Shown: positions 1 to 17,275 of the stretch, in pieces | How positions within the stretch are numbered: the first letter of the stretch is position 1 | Layout of the letters: each line of letters starts with the position of its first letter | Virus record (IMG/VR): IMGVR_UViG_3300025645_000401 | Span: 1 to 26,048 of that record | Length of the DNA: 26,048 bases | From: a virus | Taxonomy: Duplodnaviria > Caudoviricetes | Direction: 5' to 3' (one strand) | Position numbers and translations under genes: made by a program | The notes under the pieces: model-generated | Database searches by the model: none | Seen by the model: only the letters and a program-made list of their open reading frames with translations | What the model was told of the DNA's origin: nothing

Positions 1-3000
1 CAAAATGCGATAGAGTATGACGGGACTGAGGACGACAGCGAAGGTGACGGCGATGACGCTACGCTAGATATGAACAGCCTAGCGCCTGACGGTGAGATGA
101 GTACCTCGAAAACTTCGGCCTACGAAGTTGACGGTGTTGTAGACGATACACTAAAAGCATGGACGCAGAAACAAGAGACAGCTCCCACTGCCCAGACCGC
201 GGCGCAGAGAGCTGCTATTCGGGCTGAGTTTGATGCGGCTATGAAGAAAGACCGTAAGTACAAAGTTGCGGTCGACCTATGGAACAACGGGTTTGAGTCT
301 GATGTAGAAAATGAAGCGGACCGTGTCCCCTTCGAGTCTATGGATGCGGGCTCTCGCCTTGAGTGGCTCACGTTCGCCACAGAATATAACTCAGGAGACC
401 TTGACCTAGACGCCTTAGGTCAAGAGTACGACTTTATCCGTGCCGACTTTATAAAGGATACACAAAATGCCAAACGTCAAAGCCCCGACCCAGTCGGACA
501 AATTGCAGGCCAAGCAGACCCGGAAGAGACTGCTCCTGTTAGTGGAGGAGTACGAGAAGAAGGGGCTAGACCTGAGCAAAGCGAAGAGCGTGCTGATGGG
601 GAAGAGAACCCCACGCAGTTAACCGCTGAACAGTTTAAGGAGCGCTCTGCTAACGTACAGGTTACAACTAAGAAGAAGCGCCGGGTGGTTAAACCCACAG
701 TGGCAGCTCCAGTGGTTGACACTAAGCCTACTCCCACTGTGGAGGCCAAGACACCTGCTGGAGACACACGCGGCCAAGGTACTCAGTACCATGGGTCATC
801 CAGAGAAGTCACTTCCCTAGATGACAGCTCTTACGGACCGGTGAACATATACGGGCAAGGGTTTTACACAACGGACGCTGCTGACATAGCTACAGGGTAC
901 TCAAACGCGGGCAGAGGAAAAGGGCCTAAATCGCCGGTAGTGTACAAAGTTACAAAGCTAAAAGACGCTAACCTGTTTGACTTAGAACAGCCCTTGACCC
1001 CCCAAGTACTCGGGTGGTTCAGTCAGTCAAGAGTATTTAAAGCGGATGAAGCGCAAGATTTACCTGCAACGTCGACAGTGCGCGACGCTTTAGACTACCT
1101 GCGCAGCACTATGACCGACGACATGGAAACAGCAGATGCTATACAAGATAGTATGGAGAGCTTCCGTAGAACGCTAGAGAACGCAGGGTTCGAAGGATAC
1201 CGCCACGTCGGCGGTACGTTTACAGGTAAAGCGCCCCATAACGTAGAAATCTTCTGGGAGCCAAGCGAGCAACTAAAAATCGAAAGAACAACCCCCGCGG
1301 AAGTAGAGCCTACTCCCACTGTGGAAGCCAAGGCACCTAAGAAGCGAGAAGGGTCAGTCGCTCAAGTTAACAGCGCGGACGCCATAGCAGAGCGGTTGGG
1401 TGGTGAAGTCGTTTACCAGAACGGTGAGCTGTCTCTTGTTCGCGGGTACAGCAACATCTCGGGGGCTCCAGTATACGCCGCCGCTAAAAACGATACGTAC
1501 ACCACAGTGGACGTTGAGAGCTACACAGGCAATGTCTTTACCCCTAGCCAAAAGGCGGAGCTTGTAGCCGCTAAGACCGCCGTGGAAACGGAAGCGCAGA
1601 GAGTTCACGCAGAAACACCGTTTGTCACTTATGAGAACGGCTTAGCATTCTCCGAGAATACGTCTCCCGAATTGCAGGGTATCGCGCGCGGTTGGAAAGA
1701 GTTGCTCGGGCTTGAGTCCGAGGTGTACATCACAACCCTTAGCGACGCGAAGGCCAACAAGCTTAACTTTACAGGTCCACTACGGGCCGTTGGCTCTGGC
1801 ACGCTAGACAGCAATGAGCGTGGATCTACGCGTCGTATGGCTGACGGCACTCACTACATTATCTTTGACGACCAACCTGACAAAGCTGCCACACTGGAGA
1901 CTCTCGCCCATGAGATGGGTCATATACACCAGAAGGAAGCGTTTGACTCTGCCCCAGCAAGCCTGAAGGGGGAACTTTACGACGCGCACAAGGCTTGGCT
2001 GGCAGAACAGAAAGGCGGAACCGCTAAAGCTTTGGTTGAAGCTCTACGCGCTCGGAAGACGGGTAAAACCACTAAGGTCGGTGAAGATCTTATGGCGCAC
2101 CAAGCGCAGCCCTACTGGAAGTCGTTCAGCGAATGGTACGCCGACCAAGTATCACGTTGGGCAACAACGCAAAAGGTTCCACTAACGGTTGTCGAGAAGT
2201 TCTTCTCTCGCCTCGGCAAAGCCATGAAAAGCTTTTACGCCAAGGTGGCAAACAAGAAGTACCTGCCGTCATCCGAGTTTGTGAATTACTTGAGCCAAGT
2301 CAAAGGCGCTGCCCTGCGAGACCCGCTTAACGATAACGTCGACCTCCAGTCCGACGCAATGAAGGGGTCTATGGAGCCAACACCTGAGGGGCGCGCAAAC
2401 ACCGGGCGCTACGCCCAAAAGGCAGGCGAGGTGTTTGGACCTAAAGCTGAGCAGTTTGTGAATGACTCTACTGAGCTTTTTTCAAAAGCCGCTCGTTCGC
2501 TAGAGTTCGTTCACCAGTTTATCCGTAGGATTAAAGGACGGTTGCCCGAAGCTGGGGTGTGGTACCAAGCTGTTAAAGAGTCAGACAAGACACGCCAAGA
2601 CATCCGTCGTCAGGTAGAGGCCATAGCGATCGACGCTCGAAACCTAACGGGTGAGCGCTTAGTAGTCGTCAACGACTTTGTCAGTAAGTCCACCTACTTC
2701 CAGAAGTGGGGCTACAACCCTCAGTTTACTGACAAGAACGGAGACCCGCGCGTTATTAAAACAGACGCTATCATGGAGCGAGCCTACAACCGGTTAGCAC
2801 CTGTTGAGCAGAAGTTGGTGCGGGACATGTTCCAGCACGGTGAAAACATGCGTCTGCGCAAGCTGGCAATCGCCAAAGAGATGGGTATTCCAAAGACCTT
2901 CTTTAGTGCTGAGGCCCTTGACGGTCCCTATGCCCCACTGAAGCGTTTTGGTAAGTATGCTACGGTACTGAAGTCCCAAGCGTTACTTGACGCAGAGGCG

Positions 3001-5124
3001 CTCGACACGGCTGAATCAACCACAGCGACACGCAAGACTGTGGAAGAGTTAAAGTCCGACGGAGATAACTACGTGGTCAGTTTCTTTGACACCATGGGGT
3101 TGGCGAAGAAGTTCAGGGACGAGAACGCTAAGACCTACGCGTACGCAAGCGCGTCACAGCGTGCTAACGACGTAATGGAAGACCGCACACCAAACGCTGA
3201 AGTGTTCCAGAAAGTGCTTGGGGCTCTGAGCGCCGCGGACAAATCTCAGATAGACCCAGCGTCTAAGGCAGCTTTTTCCGACTTAGTGCGCGACATGTAC
3301 TTTGACTCGCTAGATCAGCGCGACGCTCGAATGTCCGGGGCCAAGCGTAAGAACCGCGCGGGTTACGAAAAGAACATGATCCGTTCGTTCCTGTCTCACG
3401 CAAGCGCTGAATCGGCGATGATCTCCACTATGGAGCACGGTGCTGAAGTCAACATGGCTCTGGCGGCGACCCTCAAGGCAGCTCGCAAAAACGAAACAGA
3501 ACTCATGCCCATGTACAACATGATGGCTGCTCACTACAAAGACTCGCTGGTCTACAAGCAGTCGACATTCCAGAGCATACAAAACCGTATAGCGGCTGGG
3601 AACTCTGTCTGGATGCTGACATCGAGCATTGGCTACCACGTAACGAACGCTACCCAGCCCGCCGCGGTTACGGTCCCGTTCCTTGCCGGGCACTTTAACA
3701 GCTACTCTGGCGCTTGGAAAAGCTTGCTAGACGGCTACACAGTGGCAAATGGGGCCATTAGGATGACGAAGGATCTCGAGACTGAGATCGACGTCGAAAA
3801 AACGCCTGAAAAGTACCGAGCGCTGCTGAAAGAACTCCAACTGCGGGGCCTTCTAGACGTAGGTATGGAAGAAGACTTGGCCTCGTTCGAGCGGTTCAAC
3901 ACAGGCTATGAGGGCCTTAACGCCGCGGGAGATGTTGCTGGCAAGATTACCCACAAGTTGTACCAAACAGCCCGTTTCGTAGAGGCTCAAAACCGTATAT
4001 CCTCAGCCGTTGCAGCGTACGACATGGCACTGGCAAAACCTTCAGTCCCTGCACGGTTCGACATGACGCCAGTGGAGTACGCGACCGCGATCGTGGAAGA
4101 CACGCAGGGTAACTTTGGTGCGCTTGACGCTCCACTGCTGCTCAAGAAGCTTCCTAAGCTGACAGTTCAGTACCGAAAGTACCAGTTCTTAATGGCGGCG
4201 AACTACGTCAAGAGTTTTCAGATGGCGTTTAAAGGTGAGTCTCCTGAGGTAAGGGCTGCGGGTAAGCGAACGCTAGGGTACATGCTCGCCCACGCCGGTA
4301 TACTCGGGGGTCTAACGGGAATCCCGTTGGTATCGAGTATTTCGGCGACGTACTTTTGGCTGGCGAATCTGGTCTCTCCTGAGGAAGACGAGCCCCAAGA
4401 TCTTGAGCGTTTTATCCGCGAGAACGTTCCGGGGAAATTCGGCGAGGTTCTTGCTCGAGGTGGGTTCAGTGCGATCGGCATAGACATGTCTACCAAACTT
4501 AGCCAAGACAACATCTTCAAACCTTTCCCGTACACGGAAATCGAGCCAACTGAAGATGCCCTTAAAGATATTGTCTTTAACCTAGCTGCTGGCCCCTCTG
4601 GTACCACGATGCTGAACTTCTTGCGCTCCGCCGAGTACGCAGCGAATGGGGATGTGTCAAAAGCCATCGAGCACTTTGTGCCAAAAGGTTTACGCAAGCC
4701 ACTGGAGTCCTACAGACTTGCTACCGAAGGCATGTCGTTTAAGAACGGCGACATCGTGGTTACCCCAGAAGAAATGAGAGCGTCAGGTATGGTTCCACTG
4801 CTTGTTAACGCGCTGGGCATTCCTGTCAGCCTTGTCGAAAACATAAAGTACACTCGGAGCCAGCAGTACGAAATCAGCCAGCACTTTAGCACTGAGACGG
4901 GCCGTATACGACGTGAGTACATAGACGCTCACCAGTCTGGCGACCCTAGGGCTAAGCTGAGACTTAAACGCGAGTGGCGAACCTTGCAGGGTCACAAGGA
5001 CAGACTTCGGGGGTCTTTCGGGAATGACAGCAAAGCGCTGCGACGCCAGTCCATATCCGATCTAATCAAAGCGCCTTTCGCTCAGCGGCGGCGGGAGCGA
5101 GGTGCTGCCAGCCGGTTCGAGTAA
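1..5124 (+). CDS. Large polyvalent protein, 5'-truncated, probably virion-associated/injected: ART-like domain, zincin-like metallopeptidase, PLxRFG domain, C-terminal helical/hydrophobic LPD-type region
   Basis: Frame +1 is open from base 1 (QNAIEYDGTEDD...), so the start lies outside the window. Motifs: YHGS...YGQGFYTT...ATGY...GFEG (~785-1265); HEMGH (1909-1923) plus downstream EWYAD; YAPLKRFGKY (PLKRFG at 2935-2952); TQGNF and a hydrophobic LAHAGILGGLTGIPLV segment near the C-terminus. Confidence 0.85.
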   Translation, partial: QNAIEYDGTEDDSEGDGDDATLDMNSLAPDGEMSTSKTSAYEVDGVVDDTLKAWTQKQETAPTAQTAAQRAAIRAEFDAAMKKDRKYKVAVDLWNNGFESDVENEADRVPFESMDAGSRLEWLTFATEYNSGDLDLDALGQEYDFIRADFIKDTQNAKRQSPDPVGQIAGQADPEETAPVSGGVREEGARPEQSEERADGEENPTQLTAEQFKERSANVQVTTKKKRRVVKPTVAAPVVDTKPTPTVEAKTPAGDTRGQGTQYHGSSREVTSLDDSSYGPVNIYGQGFYTTDAADIATGYSNAGRGKGPKSPVVYKVTKLKDANLFDLEQPLTPQVLGWFSQSRVFKADEAQDLPATSTVRDALDYLRSTMTDDMETADAIQDSMESFRRTLENAGFEGYRHVGGTFTGKAPHNVEIFWEPSEQLKIERTTPAEVEPTPTVEAKAPKKREGSVAQVNSADAIAERLGGEVVYQNGELSLVRGYSNISGAPVYAAAKNDTYTTVDVESYTGNVFTPSQKAELVAAKTAVETEAQRVHAETPFVTYENGLAFSENTSPELQGIARGWKELLGLESEVYITTLSDAKANKLNFTGPLRAVGSGTLDSNERGSTRRMADGTHYIIFDDQPDKAATLETLAHEMGHIHQKEAFDSAPASLKGELYDAHKAWLAEQKGGTAKALVEALRARKTGKTTKVGEDLMAHQAQPYWKSFSEWYADQVSRWATTQKVPLTVVEKFFSRLGKAMKSFYAKVANKKYLPSSEFVNYLSQVKGAALRDPLNDNVDLQSDAMKGSMEPTPEGRANTGRYAQKAGEVFGPKAEQFVNDSTELFSKAARSLEFVHQFIRRIKGRLPEAGVWYQAVKESDKTRQDIRRQVEAIAIDARNLTGERLVVVNDFVSKSTYFQKWGYNPQFTDKNGDPRVIKTDAIMERAYNRLAPVEQKLVRDMFQHGENMRLRKLAIAKEMGIPKTFFSAEALDGPYAPLKRFGKYATVLKSQALLDAEALDTAESTTATRKTVEELKSDGDNYVVSFFDTMGLAKKFRDENAKTYAYASASQRANDVMEDRTPNAEVFQKVLGALSAADKSQIDPASKAAFSDLVRDMYFDSLDQRDARMSGAKRKNRAGYEKNMIRSFLSHASAESAMISTMEHGAEVNMALAATLKAARKNETELMPMYNMMAAHYKDSLVYKQSTFQSIQNRIAAGNSVWMLTSSIGYHVTNATQPAAVTVPFLAGHFNSYSGAWKSLLDGYTVANGAIRMTKDLETEIDVEKTPEKYRALLKELQLRGLLDVGMEEDLASFERFNTGYEGLNAAGDVAGKITHKLYQTARFVEAQNRISSAVAAYDMALAKPSVPARFDMTPVEYATAIVEDTQGNFGALDAPLLLKKLPKLTVQYRKYQFLMAANYVKSFQMAFKGESPEVRAAGKRTLGYMLAHAGILGGLTGIPLVSSISATYFWLANLVSPEEDEPQDLERFIRENVPGKFGEVLARGGFSAIGIDMSTKLSQDNIFKPFPYTEIEPTEDALKDIVFNLAAGPSGTTMLNFLRSAEYAANGDVSKAIEHFVPKGLRKPLESYRLATEGMSFKNGDIVVTPEEMRASGMVPLLVNALGIPVSLVENIKYTRSQQYEISQHFSTETGRIRREYIDAHQSGDPRAKLRLKREWRTLQGHKDRLRGSFGNDSKALRRQSISDLIKAPFAQRRRERGAASRFE
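725..756 (+). repeat. 32-bp intragenic direct repeat, copy 1
   Basis: AGCCTACTCCCACTGTGGAGGCCAAGACACCT; 30/32 identical to 1307-1338. Confidence 0.95.
1307..1338 (+). repeat. 32-bp intragenic direct repeat, copy 2
   Basis: AGCCTACTCCCACTGTGGAAGCCAAGGCACCT; 582 bp (194 codons) from copy 1, same frame. Confidence 0.95.
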
Positions 5125-5167
5125 TGTCTCTCCTCGGGCGTTAACTTATTCCCTTAGCGCCCCTTTC

Positions 5168-5201
5168 GCCTAGCCTTATCCATTGGGCTAGGCTTTTTTT
5201 T
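5168..5201 (+). terminator. Rho-independent terminator after the polyvalent protein gene
   Basis: Stem GCCTAGCCT / GGGCTAGGC with an 8-nt loop, followed by 8 T. Confidence 0.9.
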
Positions 5202-5258
5202 GTACGAAAATCGTGTAGTATCAAGTTGTTAGCTAAATTCACACTCAGGGTATGACTA

Positions 5259-6038
5259 ATGCGACATTTGTTTATTCCAGATACTCAAGTTAAGAAAGGC
5301 GTGCCGCTCGACCATCTCCGCGCGCTAGGCAACTACATAGTAGAGAAAAAGCCAGACGTGATTATCCACATTGGTGACCATGCCGATATGCCGTCGCTGT
5401 CTAGTTACGAGAAGACCGGCTCCAAATATTTCGAGAACATGCGATACCGAGACGACATCGAGTCCTCAAGGCTTGGCATGGAAATACTGCTAGAGCCCAT
5501 GGTTCGCTACAACAATATGCAGAAGCGCAACAAGAAAGCCCTGTACAAGCCGCGGATGGACCTCACGCTTGGCAACCACGAGTATCGCATTCAGCGCACG
5601 ATCAATGACGACCCGGTGAAACTTGAGGGTCTGATGAGTATGAGCGATCTGGGTTACGAGGAGTACGGCTGGACTGTACACCCGTTCCTACACCACGTTG
5701 AGATTGATGGCGTGCTGTACTCGCACTATCACAAGAACCCGAATAGTCCCATGGGCAACCCGATGGGTGGCACGATCCAGTCCAAGCTGAACAACATGAA
5801 GCAGTCATTCTCGAATGGCCACAACCAGATGCTCCAGTACGGCATAGCTTATACCGGATCAGGTCGCAGGCTGCATGGTTTGCAAGCTGGTGCGTTCTAT
5901 ATGCACGACGAGGGCTTCATGGGGTTGCAAGGTAACAAACAGCACTGGCGCGGCGTAGTAGTCAAGAACGAGGTGAAAGATGGGCAATACGACCCCTGTT
6001 TTGTGTCTCTCGACTACCTTCTGAAGAACTACAGGTAG
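5259..6038 (+). CDS. Calcineurin-like metallophosphoesterase (phage type)
   Basis: Metal-binding motifs in canonical order: PDTQ, GDHAD, GNHE, SH, GHNQ. Confidence 0.85.
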   Translation: MRHLFIPDTQVKKGVPLDHLRALGNYIVEKKPDVIIHIGDHADMPSLSSYEKTGSKYFENMRYRDDIESSRLGMEILLEPMVRYNNMQKRNKKALYKPRMDLTLGNHEYRIQRTINDDPVKLEGLMSMSDLGYEEYGWTVHPFLHHVEIDGVLYSHYHKNPNSPMGNPMGGTIQSKLNNMKQSFSNGHNQMLQYGIAYTGSGRRLHGLQAGAFYMHDEGFMGLQGNKQHWRGVVVKNEVKDGQYDPCFVSLDYLLKNYR

Positions 6039-6054
6039 GAGCGCACAATATTTA

Positions 6055-6280
6055 TTTTGACTACAGTTTTACTACATTCCCAAATAGCGGTTCGGTAAGT
6101 ATCCGTTTTAATTAACCTATTTATACCCACTGCAACTCAGCGAGATAAGCAGCAGCTTTTTTTTCAAATAATTTCTGTTTAATTTCTAGCTAGTTAACAG
6201 ATAGTCAAACTGTAGCTTTCTCAGGTGAAACTACTTGAACACAGGTGTATGTACCTGTACGACTACATCTTACTTCAGTT
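6055..6280. mobile_element. Probable attP with integrase arm-type repeats
   Basis: AT-rich intergenic region just 5' of the integrase. Tandem ACTACA-like pairs at 6058-6076 and 6260-6277, and an inverted pair at ~6199-6216. Confidence 0.65.
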
Positions 6281-6301
6281 TGATGCAGGCGGGTTTTAGC
6301 T

Positions 6302-7306
6302 ATGGCGAGTATATACAGACGCGGGAAAGTCTACTGGATTCAGTGGAGCCTCGACGGGGAACGCCACAATGAGTCTCTGCGCACCACCGTAAAGAAGGAA
6401 GCGCTGATAGCCAAGTCAGCTAAAGAGCTGGAGACGCGGACCGGTGTGTCCGTCGCCCAGTCTAACTGCACCGTGGCAGAGTTCAGCGTACAGTACCTTT
6501 TGTGGCACCGTGGAGAGTACCCGTGGGCTGAGAAAGGAATGCGCTATTACTTCGACTCGACCTTGCTACCTTCGTTCGGCCACATGCGCCTCGCCAGCCT
6601 AGATCCCCAACAGGTAGAGCTGTGGAAACACAAACGCAACGGATCTATGGGGCACTTGTCCAAGCGCCCACGAACACGACTCACTGTTAACTCAGAGCTA
6701 AAGAAGCTCAAGGCGCTGGTAAACAAAGCGGTGGAGTGGGGAGTTATACCTAGGAACACGATCGCTCCAGTCAAAATGTTCCAGAACTTGGATGCTAACG
6801 CACGCGGGTACCTCACGAAAGAACAGCTAAACGCGCTGTACACCGCTGACCCTGAGACTGCTGCGATCTGGCAGCTAATGGCCAACACGGGTATGCGGAT
6901 CGGGGAAGCTATGAACCTAAAATGGACGAGGGTTAATGCTGAGAGGGTGAGGGTTGTATCGAGTCAGGAACATATGACAAAGACGCGCCAGTGGCGGGAC
7001 ATACCAGTATCACCGGGATGTCGATCTGCGTTGGCGGAGTTGAGGGGTCGCAACGACGGTTACGTGTTGCCGAGGGTAAATATCACTACGTTGAGGAGGT
7101 ACTTTAAGAAGGCGTGCGATAAGGCGGGGTTTGATGCAGTGCCTCACGAATTACGTCATACATTCATTAGTCACTTAGTGATGCAAGGCATTCCGTTGCG
7201 CACAGTGCAGGTACTGGCGGGGCACAAGAGTATCGCCGTAACAGAGCAATACGCGCATCTTGCGCCCAACCACATGTCAGACATGGTTTCTAGTCTTCAC
7301 CTCTAG
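6302..7306 (+). CDS. int: Tyrosine recombinase / phage integrase
   Basis: Catalytic set R (TGMRIGE), K (TKT), HxxR (HELRH), H (AGH), Y (EQYAH); short N-terminal arm-binding-like beta domain. Confidence 0.95.
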   Translation: MASIYRRGKVYWIQWSLDGERHNESLRTTVKKEALIAKSAKELETRTGVSVAQSNCTVAEFSVQYLLWHRGEYPWAEKGMRYYFDSTLLPSFGHMRLASLDPQQVELWKHKRNGSMGHLSKRPRTRLTVNSELKKLKALVNKAVEWGVIPRNTIAPVKMFQNLDANARGYLTKEQLNALYTADPETAAIWQLMANTGMRIGEAMNLKWTRVNAERVRVVSSQEHMTKTRQWRDIPVSPGCRSALAELRGRNDGYVLPRVNITTLRRYFKKACDKAGFDAVPHELRHTFISHLVMQGIPLRTVQVLAGHKSIAVTEQYAHLAPNHMSDMVSSLHL

Positions 7307-7320
7307 GGAGCGGCGTCATG

Positions 7321-7566
7321 CTACCACTTCCTCGTGCTGAGCTGATCTGTTCGGGGATGCCGTAGATCTTCTACAAGCAAAGAATTGTCGATGTGGTCTC
7401 GGGTATTCACGCAACGTGCGCTTCTTGTGTGGCGCTTTGTTCCACCGCACAGTTCGCAGATTTTACCATCGAAGAACTTTAGCTTCTGCTCTAGCGCATC
7501 TGCACGAGCGTACATTTTCTCTGCATCGGACCGTAAACTATCAGGTGTTACCTTTGCGTAGTTCAT
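7321..7566 (-). CDS. Small hypothetical protein with a Cys motif (CELC...RC)
   Basis: Start moved to ATG 7566: ATGA overlap with the upstream stop and a GGAG RBS; 81 aa. Confidence 0.6.
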   Translation of the reverse strand: MNYAKVTPDSLRSDAEKMYARADALEQKLKFFDGKICELCGGTKRHTRSARCVNTRDHIDNSLLVEDLRHPRTDQLSTRKW

Positions 7567-7766
7567 GTTGTTACTCTCCATAGTGAGTTTAGTTTCGAAT
7601 AATCGGGTCGGTCTATTTCGCTGCACGCTGTGATCTGCCTGTACTTATCTTCGCACGGTATGCAGCTGCTGTGGCGCTTGCCGCTTTTGTGGTTGAGGTA
7701 CAGGGGTGCTGCTACGATTTTGCCACAGCTGTAACACCGGGCTTTGAGTGGGGCTGCTCGGGCCAT
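7563..7766 (-). CDS. Small zinc-ribbon protein
   Basis: CYSC...CIPC; stop/start overlaps with both neighbours. Confidence 0.6.
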   Translation of the reverse strand: MARAAPLKARCYSCGKIVAAPLYLNHKSGKRHSSCIPCEDKYRQITACSEIDRPDYSKLNSLWRVTT

Positions 7767-8194
7767 TAGTTGACCCCCGTTGAACCAAAACCTTTCTTGC
7801 CCCGTGTGGTGTCGTCCAGCTCCTTCACCTCAGTCGAGACCAGCATTGCCGGCACTACAATTAACTGTGCGATACGCTCACCGCGCTCAACTCTAAACGG
7901 CACGATGTCTGTACTGTGAACCGTCATCACAACGCGGATCTCGCCACGGTAATCTGAATCAATTACACCTGCCATGGTGTCCACGCCTCGGCTAACAGCC
8001 AGTCCACTGCGTGGTTTGATCAGACCAACGAACCCATCTGGTACGGCAACTGCGATGCCAGTACTGATGCTCGCTACTTGCCCGAAGTGAACTCGGGAGA
8101 GGTCTTGGTCTGAGTAGATGTCGAACCCTGCGGCTCCTGCGGTGGTACGTTTTGGTATTACTGCTGTATCTGTTAAACGTTTGAACTTGATCAT
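7766..8194 (-). CDS. dut: dUTPase (trimeric)
   Basis: All five motifs: AGFDI, PRSGLA, GVIDSDYRGEI, GERIAQL, RGKKGFGSTG. Confidence 0.97.
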   Translation of the reverse strand: MIKFKRLTDTAVIPKRTTAGAAGFDIYSDQDLSRVHFGQVASISTGIAVAVPDGFVGLIKPRSGLAVSRGVDTMAGVIDSDYRGEIRVVMTVHSTDIVPFRVERGERIAQLIVVPAMLVSTEVKELDDTTRGKKGFGSTGVN

Positions 8195-8197
8195 CGT

Positions 8198-8395
8198 CTA
8201 CACCTTGAGAAGAACTTGAGGAAATATGGTGTCGATGTTCGCCAGCACTGCCAGCAATAACACAACAAAGGTGTAAGTCATCAAGGCGGTATAGACTGCC
8301 CAGTACCATTTCATTTCCTCGATCAGCATGTTAAAGGCGACCTGACCACAGAACATCATTACCGACAGCATGATCATAATTTGTAATATTGTCAT
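8198..8395 (-). CDS. Small membrane protein with two predicted TM helices
   Basis: Two hydrophobic stretches; GGAG RBS; tightly packed in the operon. Confidence 0.6.
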   Translation of the reverse strand: MTILQIMIMLSVMMFCGQVAFNMLIEEMKWYWAVYTALMTYTFVVLLLAVLANIDTIFPQVLLKV

Positions 8396-8397
8396 GT

Positions 8398-8589
8398 TCA
8401 GTTCTCCAAGATCATCGGTTGGACGTCGACGCCCACCATCATGTGGAATATCGCTTTGGCCTGTGCTTCGATGATCTTGGGCCGTGACCAGTCGTACCGT
8501 ACCGCAGATGCCACGGCTTGGTGTCTGTGTGGTATCCCAGCACGGTATGTGAATGTATACCCGCTGATGTCGTCAATTAGTTTTTTCAT
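8398..8589 (-). CDS. Hypothetical protein
   Basis: GGAGG RBS; tight packing. Confidence 0.55.
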   Translation of the reverse strand: MKKLIDDISGYTFTYRAGIPHRHQAVASAVRYDWSRPKIIEAQAKAIFHMMVGVDVQPMILEN

Positions 8590-8683
8590 TGGTCTTCCTC
8601 CCGATACGGGGATTCCCGTTTCGTAATCGTTTGATCTTCTTGGGGGTGCCTTTCTCCGCTGTTATGTTCTTTGTAGTGATCAT
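8573..8683 (-). CDS. Possible 36-aa basic peptide (not in ORF track)
   Basis: MITTKNITAEKGTPKKIKRLRNGNPRIGRKTNEKTN fills the gap between neighbours; weak AGGGA RBS. Confidence 0.3.
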   Translation of the reverse strand: MITTKNITAEKGTPKKIKRLRNGNPRIGRKTNEKTN

Positions 8684-8689
8684 TTTAGT

Positions 8690-8974
8690 TTAATCCCTAG
8701 GGAGCCCCCACCGCTGGATCATCCCCCCTACTGCACTAGGGGACGCCTCCAAAAGTTCTGCGATGGCGATACTTTCCATCCCTTGCTTCAACAGTTTGTT
8801 TATTAACCGTGACCGGGGCGTCATAGGACGCGGAGGGGTTGTTTTAGGACGCCCCCCTAATGCTTTGGCACCCATGTCACGGAACTTTGTGTTGCCCCAC
8901 ACTCGACGCGCTCTGGCGTTACAGCTTTTTGCGTCGATCATCATTGCTTCGAGTGTGGTCATGTTGCTTGCCAT
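8690..8974 (-). CDS. Hypothetical protein with a C-terminal HTH-like region
   Basis: GMESIAIAELLEASPSAVGGMIQRW resembles an HTH; starts 2 bp after the primase stop. Confidence 0.6.
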   Translation of the reverse strand: MASNMTTLEAMMIDAKSCNARARRVWGNTKFRDMGAKALGGRPKTTPPRPMTPRSRLINKLLKQGMESIAIAELLEASPSAVGGMIQRWGLPRD

Positions 8975-8976
8975 TC

Positions 8977-11922
8977 TTATCCGCCCGCTTGGGATTCAGT
9001 AGCAACCCCTTCTTCAGTTTTCACAATTGACAGCGCTTTACTGTCGAAGAACTTCGTGAAGTTAAGTTCGTAGCAACGAGACTGGCCACTCGGGACAGTA
9101 GTGCCAGAACCCAAAGTAATGCGGGGGCTAAACGTGCCATCCGCTTGGAACACTAAGTAACCTGCACGGTCTAGCTCTTCCTTGACGGCAGCAGGTGCCA
9201 CGCCGTGCTCCTTGCACCAGTCAGCGATTGCTTTGACTGTGACGTAGACCTTCTTGTCCTCGGTACATACACGGCCCACTGCGGGGTTGCGCATAGTTTC
9301 CATCGGATGTTCTTTGACCTTGGAGCGGTTATCACCAAAGTGCTTAGTGATAATCAAACGACCCGGCAGAGTAGCAATGAACGCAGCAAGCTGTTCACTA
9401 ATGTCGAGGTTGTTTTCCCGACGGCTCTCACGCATGGTCTGGACCTGACCTAGCGCCCACTTTTTCATGGCGTCCATGTCAAACTGAACCAAATTCAGTT
9501 TGTGTGCGATCTTACCTGCCACCAGCGCAGTCACAATGGTGTCTCGGTAGAACCGTTCCTTGTTGTCTTCTTCCGACTTCGGGTTGAACTTGCTACGAGC
9601 CGAGACAATCTGGCGACGTACCCAGTCTTGGTTCTCGATGATGAACCGGATGTACGGGCGGCAAGCCTCACCGTAAACGTGGTCCATGTGGTTCTCGACG
9701 AACTCCTGCGTGATGTCAGGGAAAACCTTGTTCCGGTAGTCCGCTGGTAATGACACCTCAAAGAAACGTAGCTGCGTAGCTTCAACTCTATAACCTGCTG
9801 GCAGCTTACTAATGCTTTCCATGATCGAGTCGTTCGATGTGATGAAGCTGTTCTTAAACCACTGCCCGCCGACGGTACTGAACTTGCCCGTGGTGCCCAG
9901 TCGTTCCTTGTCCCGACCGTTAGCCAGCGCATAACCGGTACGAGTTAGCTCGTCTGGAGATCGTCCTGAGAACTCGTCGAGGACCATTGGGACAGAGCCC
10001 ATGATCGCAATCCGTTTGATCGCTGCGTTGAGCGTAGATCCTTGCTCACCAGTCTGACGTTCCATGTGCCGTGGGTTGCCATAGAAGCCGCACGCGATCT
10101 TAGCGGCAGTAGACTTACCTGTGCCACCGTGACCTGTGAACGCCAAAGGCAGGCCGTGCCAGTTACTCGACCCCATCAACTCAACAAGGGCTGAGCCCAT
10201 AGAGTGGCAGAGAGCGAACTGGAATGGTTCCGCGCCGGGGCGGTTGTACAGCTTGTCTATGTTTGAGGTCCACTCTTCAAGCGTACCACTGCGCCCAAAG
10301 TCGAGGGCTATATCTTGTGGCATACTTGGGTCGCAGAGAACATCGTGCTCACCGTCGAGGCTCAGCTCCTTGGTGCCTATTACAAAGCCTGTACGCTCCT
10401 TGTTCCACCCGAACTGGGCAACCGTCTTAGTCTCGACCCGCCATTTCTGTAGCGTGTCGATTAACTCTACTGCAAAATCAACCATATTATTTCTCGCGTT
10501 TTTGGAGCGTGTGAGAAACACCTCGTACGATGCAAGCGTCTTCGCCATCATGTCTGGGGATGCTAACTCTGTCGTAGGCATAAAGAATTCGCGCCAACGA
10601 CCGTTTTGCTCTAGTGCTTTCCAATGTATGTTCCATACTCCTTCGCTGTCTTGGATGCGATTAATGGGGTATACGAACGAGCGGCAGAACGGTGTCCAGT
10701 GGACGACGCCCTCTTCGTCTGTGTAGGCTTTCGATAACGTCTGACCGTTCCAACGGTAACCTGCCGCGGGCCAGTGTGGGATGTGCTGCCCTTCGATAAC
10801 CTGTCCCGCTGCTGCGGCTGCTTTCGTGGCGACGGCGTTAGCGTCTATGCTGGCTTCAGCGACAGACTCTGCTTTTTCAGTAAAGCCTAGTGTGACTGGA
10901 AACCTGCAAGTCGCCGCAAAAGGACAGTCTGCCATGCACCCGGCGTGGCGATCCATTTCTACGCACGATGTTGGACCAACAGTCCACTCGTCGATCTTCT
11001 CTTGCGTCTCCGCCATGGAGTAGCCTTCGTACCCTTGGCTCCACTCATGGATCTTATCTGCGCCATCCTTACAAAACTTGATGACCCCGATGGCACGGTG
11101 CCAATGAGGTTCCGGTATGTTGCCACCACTGTCTTTAAACTGACGAACAGCAGCACAGTTCTTGGCTACTACTTCCGCGTCGCTGTCAGGGTAGTCGACC
11201 GGCGTATCAGCAAACGGGCTAACATTCGCAGCCTTTCGAGTGGTCGGCGCAGGTTGCACGCTGTTGTTGGTTATGAAATCCGATAACGCTGATCGCACTT
11301 TGTCTACTGTGTAGACCTTACCTTCCCTGAGTAGCTCTACGGGGCGCGCTGGTTCGTACTTGCGGTTGTGAACGCCTATGGGCCGTAGAATACGCGACGT
11401 GTCACTATCCACGGCGCGGTCTGCTTTAATCTGTAAGTGCGTTGTGACGTCACGCTTCATAGCGGACAGTTCTTCCCACACCTCGGTCGTTATGTCTTCG
11501 TTGAGGTGGATGTAGCTGTGGTACCCGCCGCCGGAGTTAACGATCGTTGGGGATAACCGTAATGATTTAGCTAAGAGAACCACGCCTTCAAGCGCTTCCT
11601 CCTTTGTGTCGTACGCGTCCTTCTTGGATACGTCGACATCGAAGTCGTCGAAAAGTGACCGACATGCCACCACGTTTTCCTGCGTGCGGATGCGGCGCTT
11701 GCCGGTCTTCTCGTCATCGTACCAATCGCCGAATGAGTTAACTCCGAAGTAGACTGTTTCTCCTCTACCATCGAAGAATAATGCTGCTTGAGCTGCCTCT
11801 TCGGCGTTGGGGTAGTTCTTCCATTTGAACCAAGAACCGCCGTCGTCTTTCGCCTGCATGAGGCCAAGGACAGTCTGCCCCTGTGACGGAAGCACTAGCT
11901 TTAGGAACTCTAATGTACCCAT
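8977..11922 (-). CDS. Primase-helicase (N-terminal RepB'/AEP-like primase, PriCT-like region, DUF927-type P-loop helicase)
   Basis: DDFD and SGGGYHSY primase motifs; Cys cluster; QFGW; Walker A GHGGTGKST; Walker B VLDE. Confidence 0.88.
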   Translation of the reverse strand: MGTLEFLKLVLPSQGQTVLGLMQAKDDGGSWFKWKNYPNAEEAAQAALFFDGRGETVYFGVNSFGDWYDDEKTGKRRIRTQENVVACRSLFDDFDVDVSKKDAYDTKEEALEGVVLLAKSLRLSPTIVNSGGGYHSYIHLNEDITTEVWEELSAMKRDVTTHLQIKADRAVDSDTSRILRPIGVHNRKYEPARPVELLREGKVYTVDKVRSALSDFITNNSVQPAPTTRKAANVSPFADTPVDYPDSDAEVVAKNCAAVRQFKDSGGNIPEPHWHRAIGVIKFCKDGADKIHEWSQGYEGYSMAETQEKIDEWTVGPTSCVEMDRHAGCMADCPFAATCRFPVTLGFTEKAESVAEASIDANAVATKAAAAAGQVIEGQHIPHWPAAGYRWNGQTLSKAYTDEEGVVHWTPFCRSFVYPINRIQDSEGVWNIHWKALEQNGRWREFFMPTTELASPDMMAKTLASYEVFLTRSKNARNNMVDFAVELIDTLQKWRVETKTVAQFGWNKERTGFVIGTKELSLDGEHDVLCDPSMPQDIALDFGRSGTLEEWTSNIDKLYNRPGAEPFQFALCHSMGSALVELMGSSNWHGLPLAFTGHGGTGKSTAAKIACGFYGNPRHMERQTGEQGSTLNAAIKRIAIMGSVPMVLDEFSGRSPDELTRTGYALANGRDKERLGTTGKFSTVGGQWFKNSFITSNDSIMESISKLPAGYRVEATQLRFFEVSLPADYRNKVFPDITQEFVENHMDHVYGEACRPYIRFIIENQDWVRRQIVSARSKFNPKSEEDNKERFYRDTIVTALVAGKIAHKLNLVQFDMDAMKKWALGQVQTMRESRRENNLDISEQLAAFIATLPGRLIITKHFGDNRSKVKEHPMETMRNPAVGRVCTEDKKVYVTVKAIADWCKEHGVAPAAVKEELDRAGYLVFQADGTFSPRITLGSGTTVPSGQSRCYELNFTKFFDSKALSIVKTEEGVATESQAGG

Positions 11923-11995: not shown

Positions 11996-12721
11996 CTAGT
12001 CGTCGAAGTCTAGATTGTCTAGCGCTGCGTCGATGCTGTCGTAGTCGTCAACTTTAGCAGGTTTAGCTTTCTTAGGCGCGGCTTCTACCACTTCGGCAAC
12101 TGGCGCTGGGGTGGGCTTAGGGGCTGGAGCTGGTACTTCATCGAAGTCGTCACCGAAGCTTTCTACGTTTGCCGTGCTGTCAAAGCCTTCAACTTCGCCA
12201 AACGGGCTTGCCAGCTCTCGCTCTTTAAACTTCACAACTTGAACTGCACGAAGTCGTAGAGACACGCCGTTACCGTTGTTAGAAGAGTACGGCACCAACG
12301 CCAGATGGCTGTTGATCGTGCTGCCGGTTGTTAGTTCGAAATCCTCCGGCAAGAGCTGGTTTCGAGCGTCAAACTGACGTGGCTTCTTTGTTAGCTCATT
12401 GTTGTACGAACCTTTCAAGCTCGACTTTACTACGAACCCGCCGTCGACCTGCTCGAAAACCTCCTTCGCAGATGGCATCTCAGGCCAGTTGGCAGCTTTA
12501 CGCTGGTTGTACGCATCTGACATGTCTTTATAAAGATTGGCAGCCTGCTCTTTTTGGAGCTTAAAGTTCAGCTCATACTTTGCACCCTCATCCAACGGGT
12601 CACACGGGACGCTCTGCCCTTTGCCGTTGTTGGCCTTGGTGTCGTACTTGTACGTCGTGTTGATACGCGGGTACAGGGCTTCGACGTTAGTCAGGATGTG
12701 CATTGCGTTAGTTGTAGCCAT
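11996..12721 (-). CDS. Single-stranded DNA-binding protein (T7 gp2.5 / DUF2815-like)
   Basis: GVSLRLRAVQV strand motif; acidic tail ending LDNLDFDD; start moved to ATG 12721 (GAGGA RBS). Confidence 0.75.
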   Translation of the reverse strand: MATTNAMHILTNVEALYPRINTTYKYDTKANNGKGQSVPCDPLDEGAKYELNFKLQKEQAANLYKDMSDAYNQRKAANWPEMPSAKEVFEQVDGGFVVKSSLKGSYNNELTKKPRQFDARNQLLPEDFELTTGSTINSHLALVPYSSNNGNGVSLRLRAVQVVKFKERELASPFGEVEGFDSTANVESFGDDFDEVPAPAPKPTPAPVAEVVEAAPKKAKPAKVDDYDSIDAALDNLDFDD

Positions 12722-12743
12722 GGTAAATTCCTCTCGGGTTTGG

Positions 12744-13253
12744 TTAATATGTGTAGCCATCAGTGGAACCAAACGGGCTATCCGCTTGCTCCGGCGTATG
12801 TATAGAAGTGAGTTCGTCTTCGTCTAAAAATCGTGTGACTTTAAACGTCAACGTTGCTCGCTGATCTACACGGGTAACGTCGATTTTTGTTACGACGTGT
12901 GTTAGTTGTTCGCCTCGTGCTATGACTTGGTCTTCGTAAGCACGAAACGGTCGGACACTCGCAGCAGGAACGCGAAACGTTTCCGCATAGTCCGAGTTTG
13001 GTTTGCGAAGCGTAAGCTTTATGCTTTCCGCGCAAGCCTTTCCCAGTTTGCCATTAGGCGTAATTCGGGAACCCCATGTGTTGTTCGTACATACAGAACA
13101 CTTCTTCGCTTGGGGTTCGGTTGCATTAACAGACGGAACTACACCGTCATCAGACGAACACAGCTGCTCACCCTCAAGTGACCGGTAGTGTCTAGCTTTG
13201 TAAATCCGTGGTAGTACCACGACTTCTACTGGCAGATCATCCATCGTTAACAT
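12744..13253 (-). CDS. Conserved phage replication-region protein, Cys-rich (possible Zn-binding ssDNA/recombination factor)
   Basis: CSSDDG..P...PQAKKCSVC..N.WGS...GKAC pattern; located next to the SSB. Confidence 0.65.
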   Translation of the reverse strand: MLTMDDLPVEVVVLPRIYKARHYRSLEGEQLCSSDDGVVPSVNATEPQAKKCSVCTNNTWGSRITPNGKLGKACAESIKLTLRKPNSDYAETFRVPAASVRPFRAYEDQVIARGEQLTHVVTKIDVTRVDQRATLTFKVTRFLDEDELTSIHTPEQADSPFGSTDGYTY

Positions 13254-16609: not shown

Positions 16610-17275
16610 TTATACTCCGCAGAACTCGCAGTTTTGTCTACCTACCGGGCACCAGTTCTTGCAGAGGCCGGACGGCTTAGGTGTCCATTTGTCGTCATGG
16701 TGGGCTATCGCTAAACGCTTTAGCCGTGGCATGAACTCGTTCCAGATTTCTGGAAGCTGCTGACGCGTGAACACCTCTTTATCGAACTCACCAGACTTTA
16801 ACCAGATGAATCCCGTCGTAACCTTATCTATCCAAGGGTACTTAGCAAACGCTAAGGCCGCGAACAGTTTCAGCTGGTCCATGTCAGGCTTACGCTTGCC
16901 AGTTTTCCAGTCGAGCAGGTACGCTTTCTCTGGACCAACGACGCCGATGTCGATGATGCCCCGTACCCATACGTCGTCTGCCATCCATTCGGTTGGCCGG
17001 AAGCTGCGGTCGAGTGCGATACTTTCTTCGATGACACGCTTGCCCTCATAGGAAAGTATCTTGTCGACGTACCGCTCGTACTTCGCAATGCTCTTAGGCA
17101 AAGGCTTACCGTCCTTAGCGAACAGCTCCAGTGCCGTGTGTACTTCGTTGCCCCAGTTAGTTGCCTCCGTTTGGGGTTCTTTTACTTTACGCGTCACTCT
17201 AGTTAGCTCGAAGCGACGTGGACATGTTTCAAACGCTGTAAGAGCCGAGTAGCTCCAAGGTTTTTTTAGTTCCAC
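16610..17275 (-). CDS. PD-(D/E)XK exonuclease (RecB/Cas4-like)
   Basis: WSYS.....CP; GIID; DWKTGK; QL..FA; C-terminal Cys cluster. Confidence 0.88.
   Translation of the reverse strand: MELKKPWSYSALTAFETCPRRFELTRVTRKVKEPQTEATNWGNEVHTALELFAKDGKPLPKSIAKYERYVDKILSYEGKRVIEESIALDRSFRPTEWMADDVWVRGIIDIGVVGPEKAYLLDWKTGKRKPDMDQLKLFAALAFAKYPWIDKVTTGFIWLKSGEFDKEVFTRQQLPEIWNEFMPRLKRLAIAHHDDKWTPKPSGLCKNWCPVGRQNCEFCGV

Follow-up and report, generated by a model that had tools for sequence, protein, structure and literature searches.

Closest described systems

Polyvalent proteins, which occur in phages and conjugative elements, are giant multidomain proteins with genes in the virion module, and their packaging and injection are predicted; an ADP-ribosyltransferase (ART) is their commonest protein-modifying module and occurs in many architectures (Iyer et al. 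2017, PMC5512222). We focused on a gene of this type in a 26,048-base IMG/VR virus record (IMGVR_UViG_3300025645_000401; this whole stretch is called the window here, and the record is estimated to be 45% complete), in which a domain of the ART fold lies between two in-frame direct repeats, R1 and R2. Near-identical phages carry the same gene with and without this module, and the repeats are probably two copies of the recipient protein's own linker, duplicated when the module was, most likely recently, inserted. The kinship to polyvalent proteins is visible in relatives of the window's protein that are 44-53% identical to it in the peptidase-like module following R2, since these carry LPD38, LPD39, LPD23, ART-PolyVal, ddrB-ParB, GNAT and FtsK-gamma. 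The ART domains themselves differ: the window's domain stays below the Pfam cut-off for ART-PolyVal, canonical copies align with it over the N-terminal 45 columns only, and ART-PolyVal lies downstream of the peptidase-like module in the relatives, whereas the window's domain lies upstream of it. Cassette recombination is mentioned in PMC5512222; its main text contains none of the terms "linker," "direct repeat," and "shuffling," and the paper does not describe alleles that gain or lose a domain along with a duplication of the flanking target.

A second comparison is offered by the four ejection proteins that are packed in the capsid of cyanophage A4 (PMC12002296). Chain B of the A4 pre-ejectosome structure (PDB 9k3a) contains a domain of the same fold inside a large ejection protein packed in a podovirus capsid, although this domain has only 12% sequence identity to the window's. 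The chain's residue numbering, together with the Cys1715 that the paper gives for gp27, leads us to infer that chain B is gp27. The ART-like domain of this chain (residues 1420-1617) may be unannotated in the main text of the A4 paper (PMC12002296), where ADP-ribosylation is mentioned 0 times. Alt of phage T4, a head-packaged, injected ADP-ribosyltransferase that modifies host proteins early in infection (PMC5512222, PMC9503650), provides the functional model for the window's module, namely, an ART delivered with the DNA. In contrast to that module, Alt, a member of the R-S-E clade, stands as a protein by itself rather than as part of a giant one.

In polymorphic toxins, such as CdiA (VENN), Rhs and phage MuF toxins, short conserved junction motifs are the places at which variable toxin domains are swapped. 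Here, too, a short linker or junction marks the site where an effector domain can be gained, lost or replaced, but the toxin domains are C-terminal and their junction is conserved in the family, whereas the present module is internal and flanked on both sides by recipient-specific repeats. Recombination or replication slippage at short direct repeats is a general mechanism of deletion that explains a precise 582-nucleotide (194-codon) difference such as that between the ART+ allele and one of the empty types described below (L058). It explains loss only, and not the arrival of a foreign domain between two copies of a recipient linker.

An ART-fold domain between two copies of a linker

R1 and R2 are 32 nucleotides long, identical at 30 of 32 positions and spaced 582 nucleotides, or 194 codons, from start to start, both in frame 1 of the open reading frame (ORF) at 1 to 5124. 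They read KPTPTVEAKTP and EPTPTVEAKAP, respectively, and their two differences are GAG/GAA and ACA/GCA. Repeat search and translation thus bear out the preliminary description of this DNA, made from the letters alone, which had reported the positions, identity, spacing, common frame and PTPTVEAKxP reading of the pair. The ungapped repeat score of 26 compares with 12.4 ± 1.1 (maximum, 16) in 60 codon shuffles of the ORF. The third base is the same in 9 of the 10 full codons common to both copies, in keeping with the earlier remark that most wobble positions are identical, and we take this as a sign of a young duplication. The AlphaFold model of the block is poor over both repeats (predicted local distance difference test [pLDDT] of 44-62 at the N-terminal end and 51-55 at the C-terminal end), suggesting that they lie in a flexible Pro/Thr linker. 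No other 32-mer of this kind was found in the 5' part of the gene, where the preliminary description had proposed to look for further copies, only a linker stretch that is 79% alike. In a scan of viral contigs and one of metagenome contigs, the repeat core was confined to this phage group, with five contig records besides the window's own, two of which (41,828 bases each) are probably one contig.

The preliminary description had one globular domain enclosed by the repeats, and both the alignment of 26 homologues and the AlphaFold2 model, which is confident over the domain core, place that core inside R1 and R2. Its limits run from DTRGQG (amino acid [aa] 255), 2 residues after R1, to approximately KIER (aa 429), 6 residues before R2, so the boundaries stay inside the repeats; boundaries well past them would have spoken against the cassette idea. 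Three residues (H31, Y56 and Y67 of the alignment; aa 264, 289 and 300) are invariant in 26/26 sequences and lie on or beside the first two strands of the model, in line with the NAD-site His on strand 1 and Tyr on strand 2 of the H-Y-[EDQ] clade of ARTs; from their spacing, we take them to be the counterparts of H21, Y54 and Y65 of diphtheria toxin. The Glu at the position of Glu 416, which lies on a model strand in the window's domain, is kept in the window, L017, L018, L020, L021, L023 and P0003-5 and is replaced in most other members, so that this column, the candidate for the catalytic Glu or Asp that ARTs have on strand 5, holds E, R, A, N, K or Q across the family.

The top structure match was the region of 9k3a chain B named above (residues 1420-1617; VIA Z, 13.4; root mean square deviation, 3.4 Å over 161 residues; Foldseek E, 2.4e-5). 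Behind it, the VIA rows listed were diphtheria toxin (7.7), MbcT (7.5), ParT (7.2), tankyrase 2 (7.1), the 6kyf anti-CRISPR protein (6.7), RES and NatT (both 6.6) and exotoxin A (6.3), which align 122-141 residues; the Foldseek probability for RES toxins was 1.00. A VIA Z below 8 may, taken alone, reflect a common arrangement, and since these single values are all below 8, the ART fold is called from the uniform ART-superfamily content of the list. At the level of curated families, there were sub-threshold matches to two families of Pfam's ART clan: DUF3990 (PF13151; for its listing in the clan, PMC7955679) scored 25.4 bits (cut-off, 32.2; E, 1.3e-5; profile positions 4-62 of 152), and ART-PolyVal (PF18760) scored 20.3 bits (cut-off, 31.2; E, 1e-3; profile positions 10-67 of 140). 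The resemblance to the ART-like domains of polyvalent proteins that had been proposed from motifs thus holds for the fold, as judged by Foldseek and VIA, and does not hold for Pfam membership, where the domain is below both cut-offs.

The same is seen for the family as a whole, of which 19/26 members match DUF3990 (best E, 7.6e-7) and 13/26 match ART-PolyVal (best E, 2e-5) at an E value of ≤0.01. When the family was compared with 17 canonical ART-PolyVal copies by hhalign, only the HG[TS] region in the N-terminal 45 columns aligned (probability, 68.8%; E, 4.5e-5), and the strand-5 Asp of the H-Y-D active site given for ART-PolyVal (Iyer et al. 2017) was left unplaced. A sequence search of the PDB with the family profile returned nothing significant (best E, 0.12), and no Pfam model captures the family. 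As far as profiles and models tell, this is an ART-fold domain of an uncurated family and not a Pfam ART-PolyVal member; it is predicted to use nicotinamide adenine dinucleotide (NAD+) on a host target, and its enzymatic activity is likewise a prediction. Out of 1.84 billion representatives, the family comprises 315 clusters (50% identity) at an E value of 1e-30 and 787 at 1e-10, in proteins of 215 to 4179 residues in which the position of the domain varies greatly. Scanning with one peptide pattern placed it in three bacterial genomes (Delftia, Comamonas and a Peribacteria metagenome-assembled genome).

Some relatives show other arrangements of ART domains. In P0048, P0052 and P0058, which are ∼49-50% identical in the peptidase-like module, a canonical ART-PolyVal lies just downstream of that module, so that two ART families occupy two slots, the window's ART-fold domain just upstream of the peptidase-like module and ART-PolyVal downstream of it in relatives. 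In P0004 (2308 aa), whose domain is 57% identical to the window's, a module of ∼80 residues (RKDYISGYKEGYDNKHG...GYY.G) stands on both sides of the ART-like domain and AKTE abuts both domain ends, which may reflect an earlier and more extensive duplication around an insert of this type.

ART+ and empty alleles in near-identical phages

The window and the IMG/VR contigs L002 and L003 have both repeat copies and the module. The 42.2-kb contig L058 reads VVDT-KPTPTVEAKPP-KKREG at this place, with one repeat copy and no module; window positions 1-750 and 1307-4320 are both found on it with a 26-nucleotide overlap, which is the signature of a single repeat copy. IMG/VR contig L004 reads VVDT-EPTQATA-EPTPTVEAKAP-KKREG, with one copy, an additional heptad and no module. 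The protein collection contains five clusters that are 99-100% identical in the peptidase-like region, one of them ART+ (P0002, 2503 aa) and four empty, namely, P0028 (2309 aa, a 17-member cluster of the L058 type) and P0029, P0030 and P0031 (2314-2316 aa, of the L004 type). In their flanks, the ART+ and ART- alleles are 93-99.6% identical.

The single-repeat, empty alleles for which the preliminary description had suggested a search therefore exist, in the form of L058/P0028 and of L004/P0029-31. Its expectation that loss would remove exactly 194 codons and leave an intact protein agrees with the length of P0028, which equals the 2503 aa of P0002 minus 194. Different domains between the window's repeats, which it had also thought worth seeking, were not found in the five near-identical clusters. 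The window, L002 and L003 have both R1/R2 differences in common and only 1 variable site in 550 insert positions, which argues for one insertion event.

A further 15 relatives (P0032-42, P0045 and P0047 among them), which are 47-66% identical in the peptidase-like region, keep the upstream flank and have no domain; in each of them, only 2-49 residues separate the upstream match from the peptidase-like one. L006, L007 and P0032-34 have one short linker, KKKRRVVKPPKNPEEAPEAKR. Among the 120 listed relatives that keep the peptidase-like module, only P0002 has the domain. Given that all sampled relatives with the upstream flank are without the domain, that P0002 alone carries it and that the known inserts are near-identical, the module is most likely a single recent gain in the window's lineage, by insertion.

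The empty alleles also bear on exchange between genomes. L058 is nearest to the ART+ contig L002 in the upstream flank (98.6%) and to the empty contig L004 beyond position 2400 (99.6%), and directly after the repeat it has two bases in common with L004. This would fit recombination in which R1 of an ART+ genome crossed over with the one copy present in an empty genome, and it would also fit L058 as an old recipient type. The EPTQATA heptad implies that the L004-type allele cannot come from a simple R1 × R2 crossover. When window positions 1-5124 are compared with L002, L003, L004, L005 and L058, the gene appears as a mosaic of haplotype blocks, with differences clustered at 137-152, 367-384 and 651-669; together with the switch of nearest relative in L058, this suggests frequent recombination within the phage population.

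Contigs from natural samples add to this picture. The module and its joints with both flanks are covered by contigs of four runs from four studies, one of which may be the window's source. In run X16, the depth figure of the module contig is lower than that of the flank contigs; there is one figure per contig, and nothing was drawn from it. A joint on an X16 contig that skips 48 nucleotides of the L004 linker was rejected as a bridge, having 30 letters on its shorter side. Contig ends at window positions 700-760 and 1300-1340 (runs X9, X16, X17 and X18; each in two to four runs) reveal at least three further junction forms: different sequence before EPTQATA-EPTPTVEAK ("...STTYTRQDLV|EPTQATAEPTPTVEAK"), different sequence after VAAPVV ("VAAPVV|EPVGARVSAA...") and a PEQQSAAP side joined to VEAKAPKKREG ("...GQPEQQSAAP|VEAKAPKKREG"). 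Two junction 30-mers had no exact match in viral contigs, and the distinctive peptides of the three junctions were missing from the collected proteins and loci, apart from the five-residue PEQQS in P0078 and P0123; a search among shorter proteins gave nothing near-identical. These forms might be further alleles or alternative inserts, and the linker looks hypervariable in natural populations.

Probable insertions of the same kind in other lineages

A scan of DNA flanks covered 33 other loci with the domain, several of them near-duplicates, and brought out one further clear case. In this second lineage, represented by L018, the flanks carry a 29-nucleotide perfect repeat (49 nucleotides at 82%) with a spacing of 618 nucleotides, or 206 codons. 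The ART domain between the copies shares 41% identity with that of the window, and the protein has a match to a family of internal virion proteins. L060, a near-twin of L018 at 98.5-99.6% identity, lacks the domain and has a single repeat copy, as does the orthologue L062 (74-77% identical). The repeat of this lineage, KPENIEVKGV, bears no relation to that of the window, and its presence as a single copy in the outgroup L062 indicates that it is the recipient's own. A likeness of the form VDT[EK]P between the linker in the window and the beginning of the L018 insert was judged to be chance, as other homologues are without it.

A third, decayed case is L047, where the domain lies between two Pro/Ala-rich linker copies that are identical at 23 of 28 positions, while in relatives whose flanks are 74-85% identical the linker is single and the domain is missing. 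Farther along, these relatives carry other modules with HExxH motifs that are missing from L047, alternative inserts for which no Pfam family match was obtained, and replacement by other modules was seen only at this corresponding slot of the L047 lineage. L071, L074, L076, L077, L084 and L091 have flanks 74-85% identical to those of L047 and quite different middles, and some L047 relatives have a "PRYSYGSKQF" module and HExxH modules of at least three kinds at the ART-like slot.

At the protein level, flanking peptide repeats reach a score of ≥7 in 7/147 distinct domain copies with full flanks (8/148 before P0001, the window's own fragment of P0002, was set aside), each with its own sequence: P0174 (13 residues), P0281 (16/18), P0219 (11/12), P0147 (10), P0236 (8), P0151 (7) and P0002 (7-8). 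The maximum among 1500 mismatched pairs was 6, and the peptidase-like domain, used as a control, gave 0/116 (Fisher one-sided p = 0.016). For P0174, P0219, P0236, P0281 and P0151, the repeats are evidence at the peptide level.

Origin of the repeats

We consider it probable that R1 and R2 are the recipient's linker, doubled by a recent insertion of the module. Entry would have proceeded through two independent illegitimate or microhomology joints, or through template switches, with the return point in the recipient ∼24-54 nucleotides upstream of the departure point, so that the target stretch would be duplicated (in the window's gene, the two positions would have overlapped by ∼30 nucleotides); in-frame insertions of whole domains into disordered linkers would be the survivors of such events. 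Homologous recombination or slippage between R1 and R2 could then excise the 582-nucleotide unit precisely, and recombination between R1 and the single copy of an empty genome could move the ART state between backgrounds, leaving a population that would hold both ART+ and ART- virions. Over time, the repeats would decay and the module would become fixed, and scar loss in old insertions would explain the ∼95% of domain copies without repeats. In the host, the module of the ejected protein is predicted to draw on NAD+ and to ADP-ribosylate or deplete a host target, as an accessory takeover or counter-defence function. Since outgroups have one linker and no domain, and since the repeats differ by lineage, they appear to be a by-product that permits loss rather than a dedicated exchange site. 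The preliminary description had seen in the linker a site of gain and loss or of exchange; the existence of ART+ and empty alleles upholds the former, while no alternative domain that would bear out the latter was found between the window's repeats in the five near-identical clusters, and we read these repeats as an insertion scar.

Several observations weigh against this reading. The insert is not distinct in GC content at third codon positions (0.50 versus 0.485 in the upstream flank), and no donor was found, the nearest module elsewhere being 57-58% identical in protein. At the last variable codon, the repeat copy of L058 has CCC, against ACA in R1 and GCA in R2, and the heptad of L004 rules out an origin of that allele by simple R1 × R2 crossover. 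The direction of change within the species-level clade could run either way, with L058 as a pre-insertion allele or as a product of excision or recombination. The 582-nucleotide deletion joint that the preliminary description had proposed to look for is not among the joints listed for the contigs of the four runs mapped to the window, which is weak evidence, since contigs, unlike raw reads, drop rare variants. As for the recurrence, a single contig carries the ART+ allele of the second lineage, tandem duplication could explain the repeat of P0281 with its two domain stretches, the flank repeats of L047 and P0151 (Lys/Pro-rich) are of low complexity, and the mismatched-pair control for the DNA flanks reached a maximum of 33 (99th percentile, 14.1), probably through pairing of related loci. 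The functional side is touched by the variability of the candidate catalytic Glu across the family and by the failure to reach either Pfam cut-off.

Alternatively, the module could be old in the clade and the repeats two similar linkers that existed beforehand, with recurrent repeat-mediated loss as the only process and no insertion behind the repeats. L058 has exactly the single-repeat form expected of such loss, near-identical proteins form four empty clusters and one ART+ cluster, and Pro-rich linkers flank many copies of the domain elsewhere. We nevertheless regard this as improbable, given that the 15 sampled relatives with the upstream flank all have one linker and no module, that 9/10 identical third positions point to a young duplication, that the repeated sequence of the second lineage occurs in the 74-77% outgroup as the recipient's own and that the L004 allele is not derivable by R1 × R2 deletion. 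Far less credit can be given to the idea that the repeats are recognition sites of a dedicated site-specific, integron-like system swapping effector domains. Such a system is suggested by an in-frame unit with tight limits and a repeat at either end, by the different modules that relatives hold in the L047-lineage slot and by the tyrosine integrase encoded at 6302-7306, but the repeats of the different lineages (PTPTVEAK, KPENIEVKGV, YGANNKLVSQDRA, PAFQKMKD and others) contain no common sequence that could serve for attachment, on which ground an integron-like cassette was rejected. Moreover, these repeats are ∼8 to 18 residues long and each derived from its recipient, no other domain was found between the window's repeats in the five near-identical clusters, and the scans met the repeat core only in five contig records besides the window's, all of this phage group.

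A transposable element was rejected as well, as the 550-nucleotide insert has no coding content besides the domain, the repeat search gave no inverted repeat linking its two ends and there is no transposase; the duplications of ∼24-54 nucleotides vary in length between cases, which we counted against target-site duplication of the transposon type. An intein was rejected because the insert starts with AGDTRG and ends with TTPAEV followed by EPT, whereas an intein would have Cys, Ser or Thr as its first residue and a terminal His-Asn before Cys, Ser or Thr, and no intein or homing-nuclease family was found with Pfam. It is scarcely credible that the whole arrangement is an artefact, be it a chance likeness of low-complexity linker DNA, a chimeric assembly of the ART+ form or both: the linker is indeed rich in Pro and Thr, and metagenome assemblies can join at repeats, but the repeat score of 26 lies far above the shuffle maximum of 16, the ART+ arrangement recurs in the window, the independent assemblies L002 and L003 and the contigs of four runs from four studies, and both the reading frame and a complete domain are preserved in the insert. 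Beyond the insertion reading that we prefer, the module might be a mobile element at the level of a domain, hopping in frame into disordered linkers of unrelated phage virion proteins, duplicating ∼24-54 bp of target and being precisely excisable, all without a transposase, intein or integrase of its own, and hence a switchable, transferable injected effector; this broader proposal is conceivable, though we hold it to be rather doubtful.

The gene, its protein and its surroundings

The features of the gene are collected in Table 1. The window starts within the gene, and the whole gene (2503 codons) is found on the near-identical 41.8-kb contig L002 at 3013-10524, directly preceded by genes with matches to families of virion structural and of DNA ejection proteins.

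TABLE 1 Positions of the repeats, the ART-fold module and neighboring features in the window
Feature	Position	Strand	Evidence or remark
Direct repeat R1, (K)PTPTVEAKTP, disordered linker	725..756	+	Repeat search; pLDDT <50 at model residues 11-19
Direct repeat R2, (E)PTPTVEAKAP, disordered linker	1307..1338	+	Repeat search; block pLDDT 51-55
Insert-specific DNA	757..1306	+	With R1 or with R2, the 582-nucleotide unit missing from the empty alleles (L004, L058, P0028-31)
Conserved core of the ART-fold domain, aa 255-429	763..1287	+	26-sequence alignment; model pLDDT 79.9, predicted template modeling score (pTM) 0.73
YHGS, invariant His aa 264, predicted NAD-site residue of strand 1	787..798	+	Alignment; putative role
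GFYTT, part of invariant NIYGQGFY, predicted strand-2 Tyr aa 289	859..873	+	Alignment; putative role
VEIFW, Glu 416, candidate catalytic acid of the subclade	1243..1257	+	Alignment; putative role
Next module with HExxH (HEMGH, 1909-1923): zincin-like, predicted peptidase	1339..2400	+	Motif in translation
PLKRFG motif (PLxRFG), aa 979-984	2935..2952	+	Translation
PLxRFG domain (NCBIfam NF032893, "tail-700"), DarB-like C-terminal region, aa 1014-1655	3040..4965	+	NCBIfam and PHROG matches (see text)
3' part of the ORF (1707 codons), giant PLxRFG/polyvalent-type virion protein gene	1..5124	+	ORF list and translation; 5' end cut by the window start

The match to NCBIfam NF032893 (188.5 bits; E, 2e-55) passes the curated cut-off of 100 bits, the same C-terminal third of the protein matches the DarB-like antirestriction family phrog_10089 of PHROG (2.4e-27), and relatives of the giant protein carry the NCBI name PLxRFG domain protein. 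The HExxH module is supported by its motif and by sub-threshold Pfam matches (eCIS_core, 0.0069; DUF6782, 0.076), and no close relative of it was found in bacterial genomes. The architecture is that of a polyvalent protein, i.e., a large phage protein joining several effector-type domains, with an ART-fold module, an HExxH module and a PLxRFG/DarB-like region in 2503 aa, although LPD families were not found with Pfam in the window's protein or its N-terminal part. Considering the place of the gene, its PLxRFG/DarB-like relatives, the literature on polyvalent proteins and the A4 structure, we predict that the giant protein, which is of the PLxRFG/polyvalent internal-virion type, is packaged and ejected with the DNA into the host.

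Elsewhere, the window encodes a tyrosine integrase, a dUTPase, a primase/helicase, a Gp2.5-like annealing protein, a helicase, an exonuclease, a DNA polymerase and others. Given the tyrosine integrase, the phage is probably temperate. Among these genes, those linked to recombination are the tyrosine integrase (6302-7306, +) and the pair at 11996-12772 (-) and 16610-17275 (-), a Gp2.5-like single-strand annealing protein and an exonuclease, which could form a recombination set able to act on short repeats. A tandem 33-nucleotide duplication (97% identical; DDNVPVLTDVV twice) is present in the 5' part of the gene outside the window (L002:4959-5024), within another Pro-rich linker region, and its second copy in P0028 has one residue changed. 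The phage is far from any cultured one, as its DNA polymerase is at most 32% identical to those of cultured phages, and a phage GenBank collection held no DNA or protein match to the first 5.1 kb of the gene or to the cassette region.

Implications for phage effector proteins

The type of host protein and the ART theme were known already; what is new is an insertion polymorphism caught in the act, together with its recurrent signature. A full-text search of one literature collection retrieved no account of domains between flanking repeats being gained or lost from allele to allele in the polyvalent or ejection proteins of phages. These proteins are known to vary wildly in their domains, and the route by which domains enter and leave had so far not been seen in action. 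Here, the states before and after are found in near-identical genomes of two independent lineages, along with a third, decayed case, and the duplicated recipient linker would be the molecular scar that marks recent insertions. This offers a testable mechanism for domain gain and loss, as well as a simple sequence signature for spotting recent effector acquisitions in metagenomes. Finally, the natural pairs of ART+ and ART- phages provide a means to ask what an injected ART-fold effector does against host defences.

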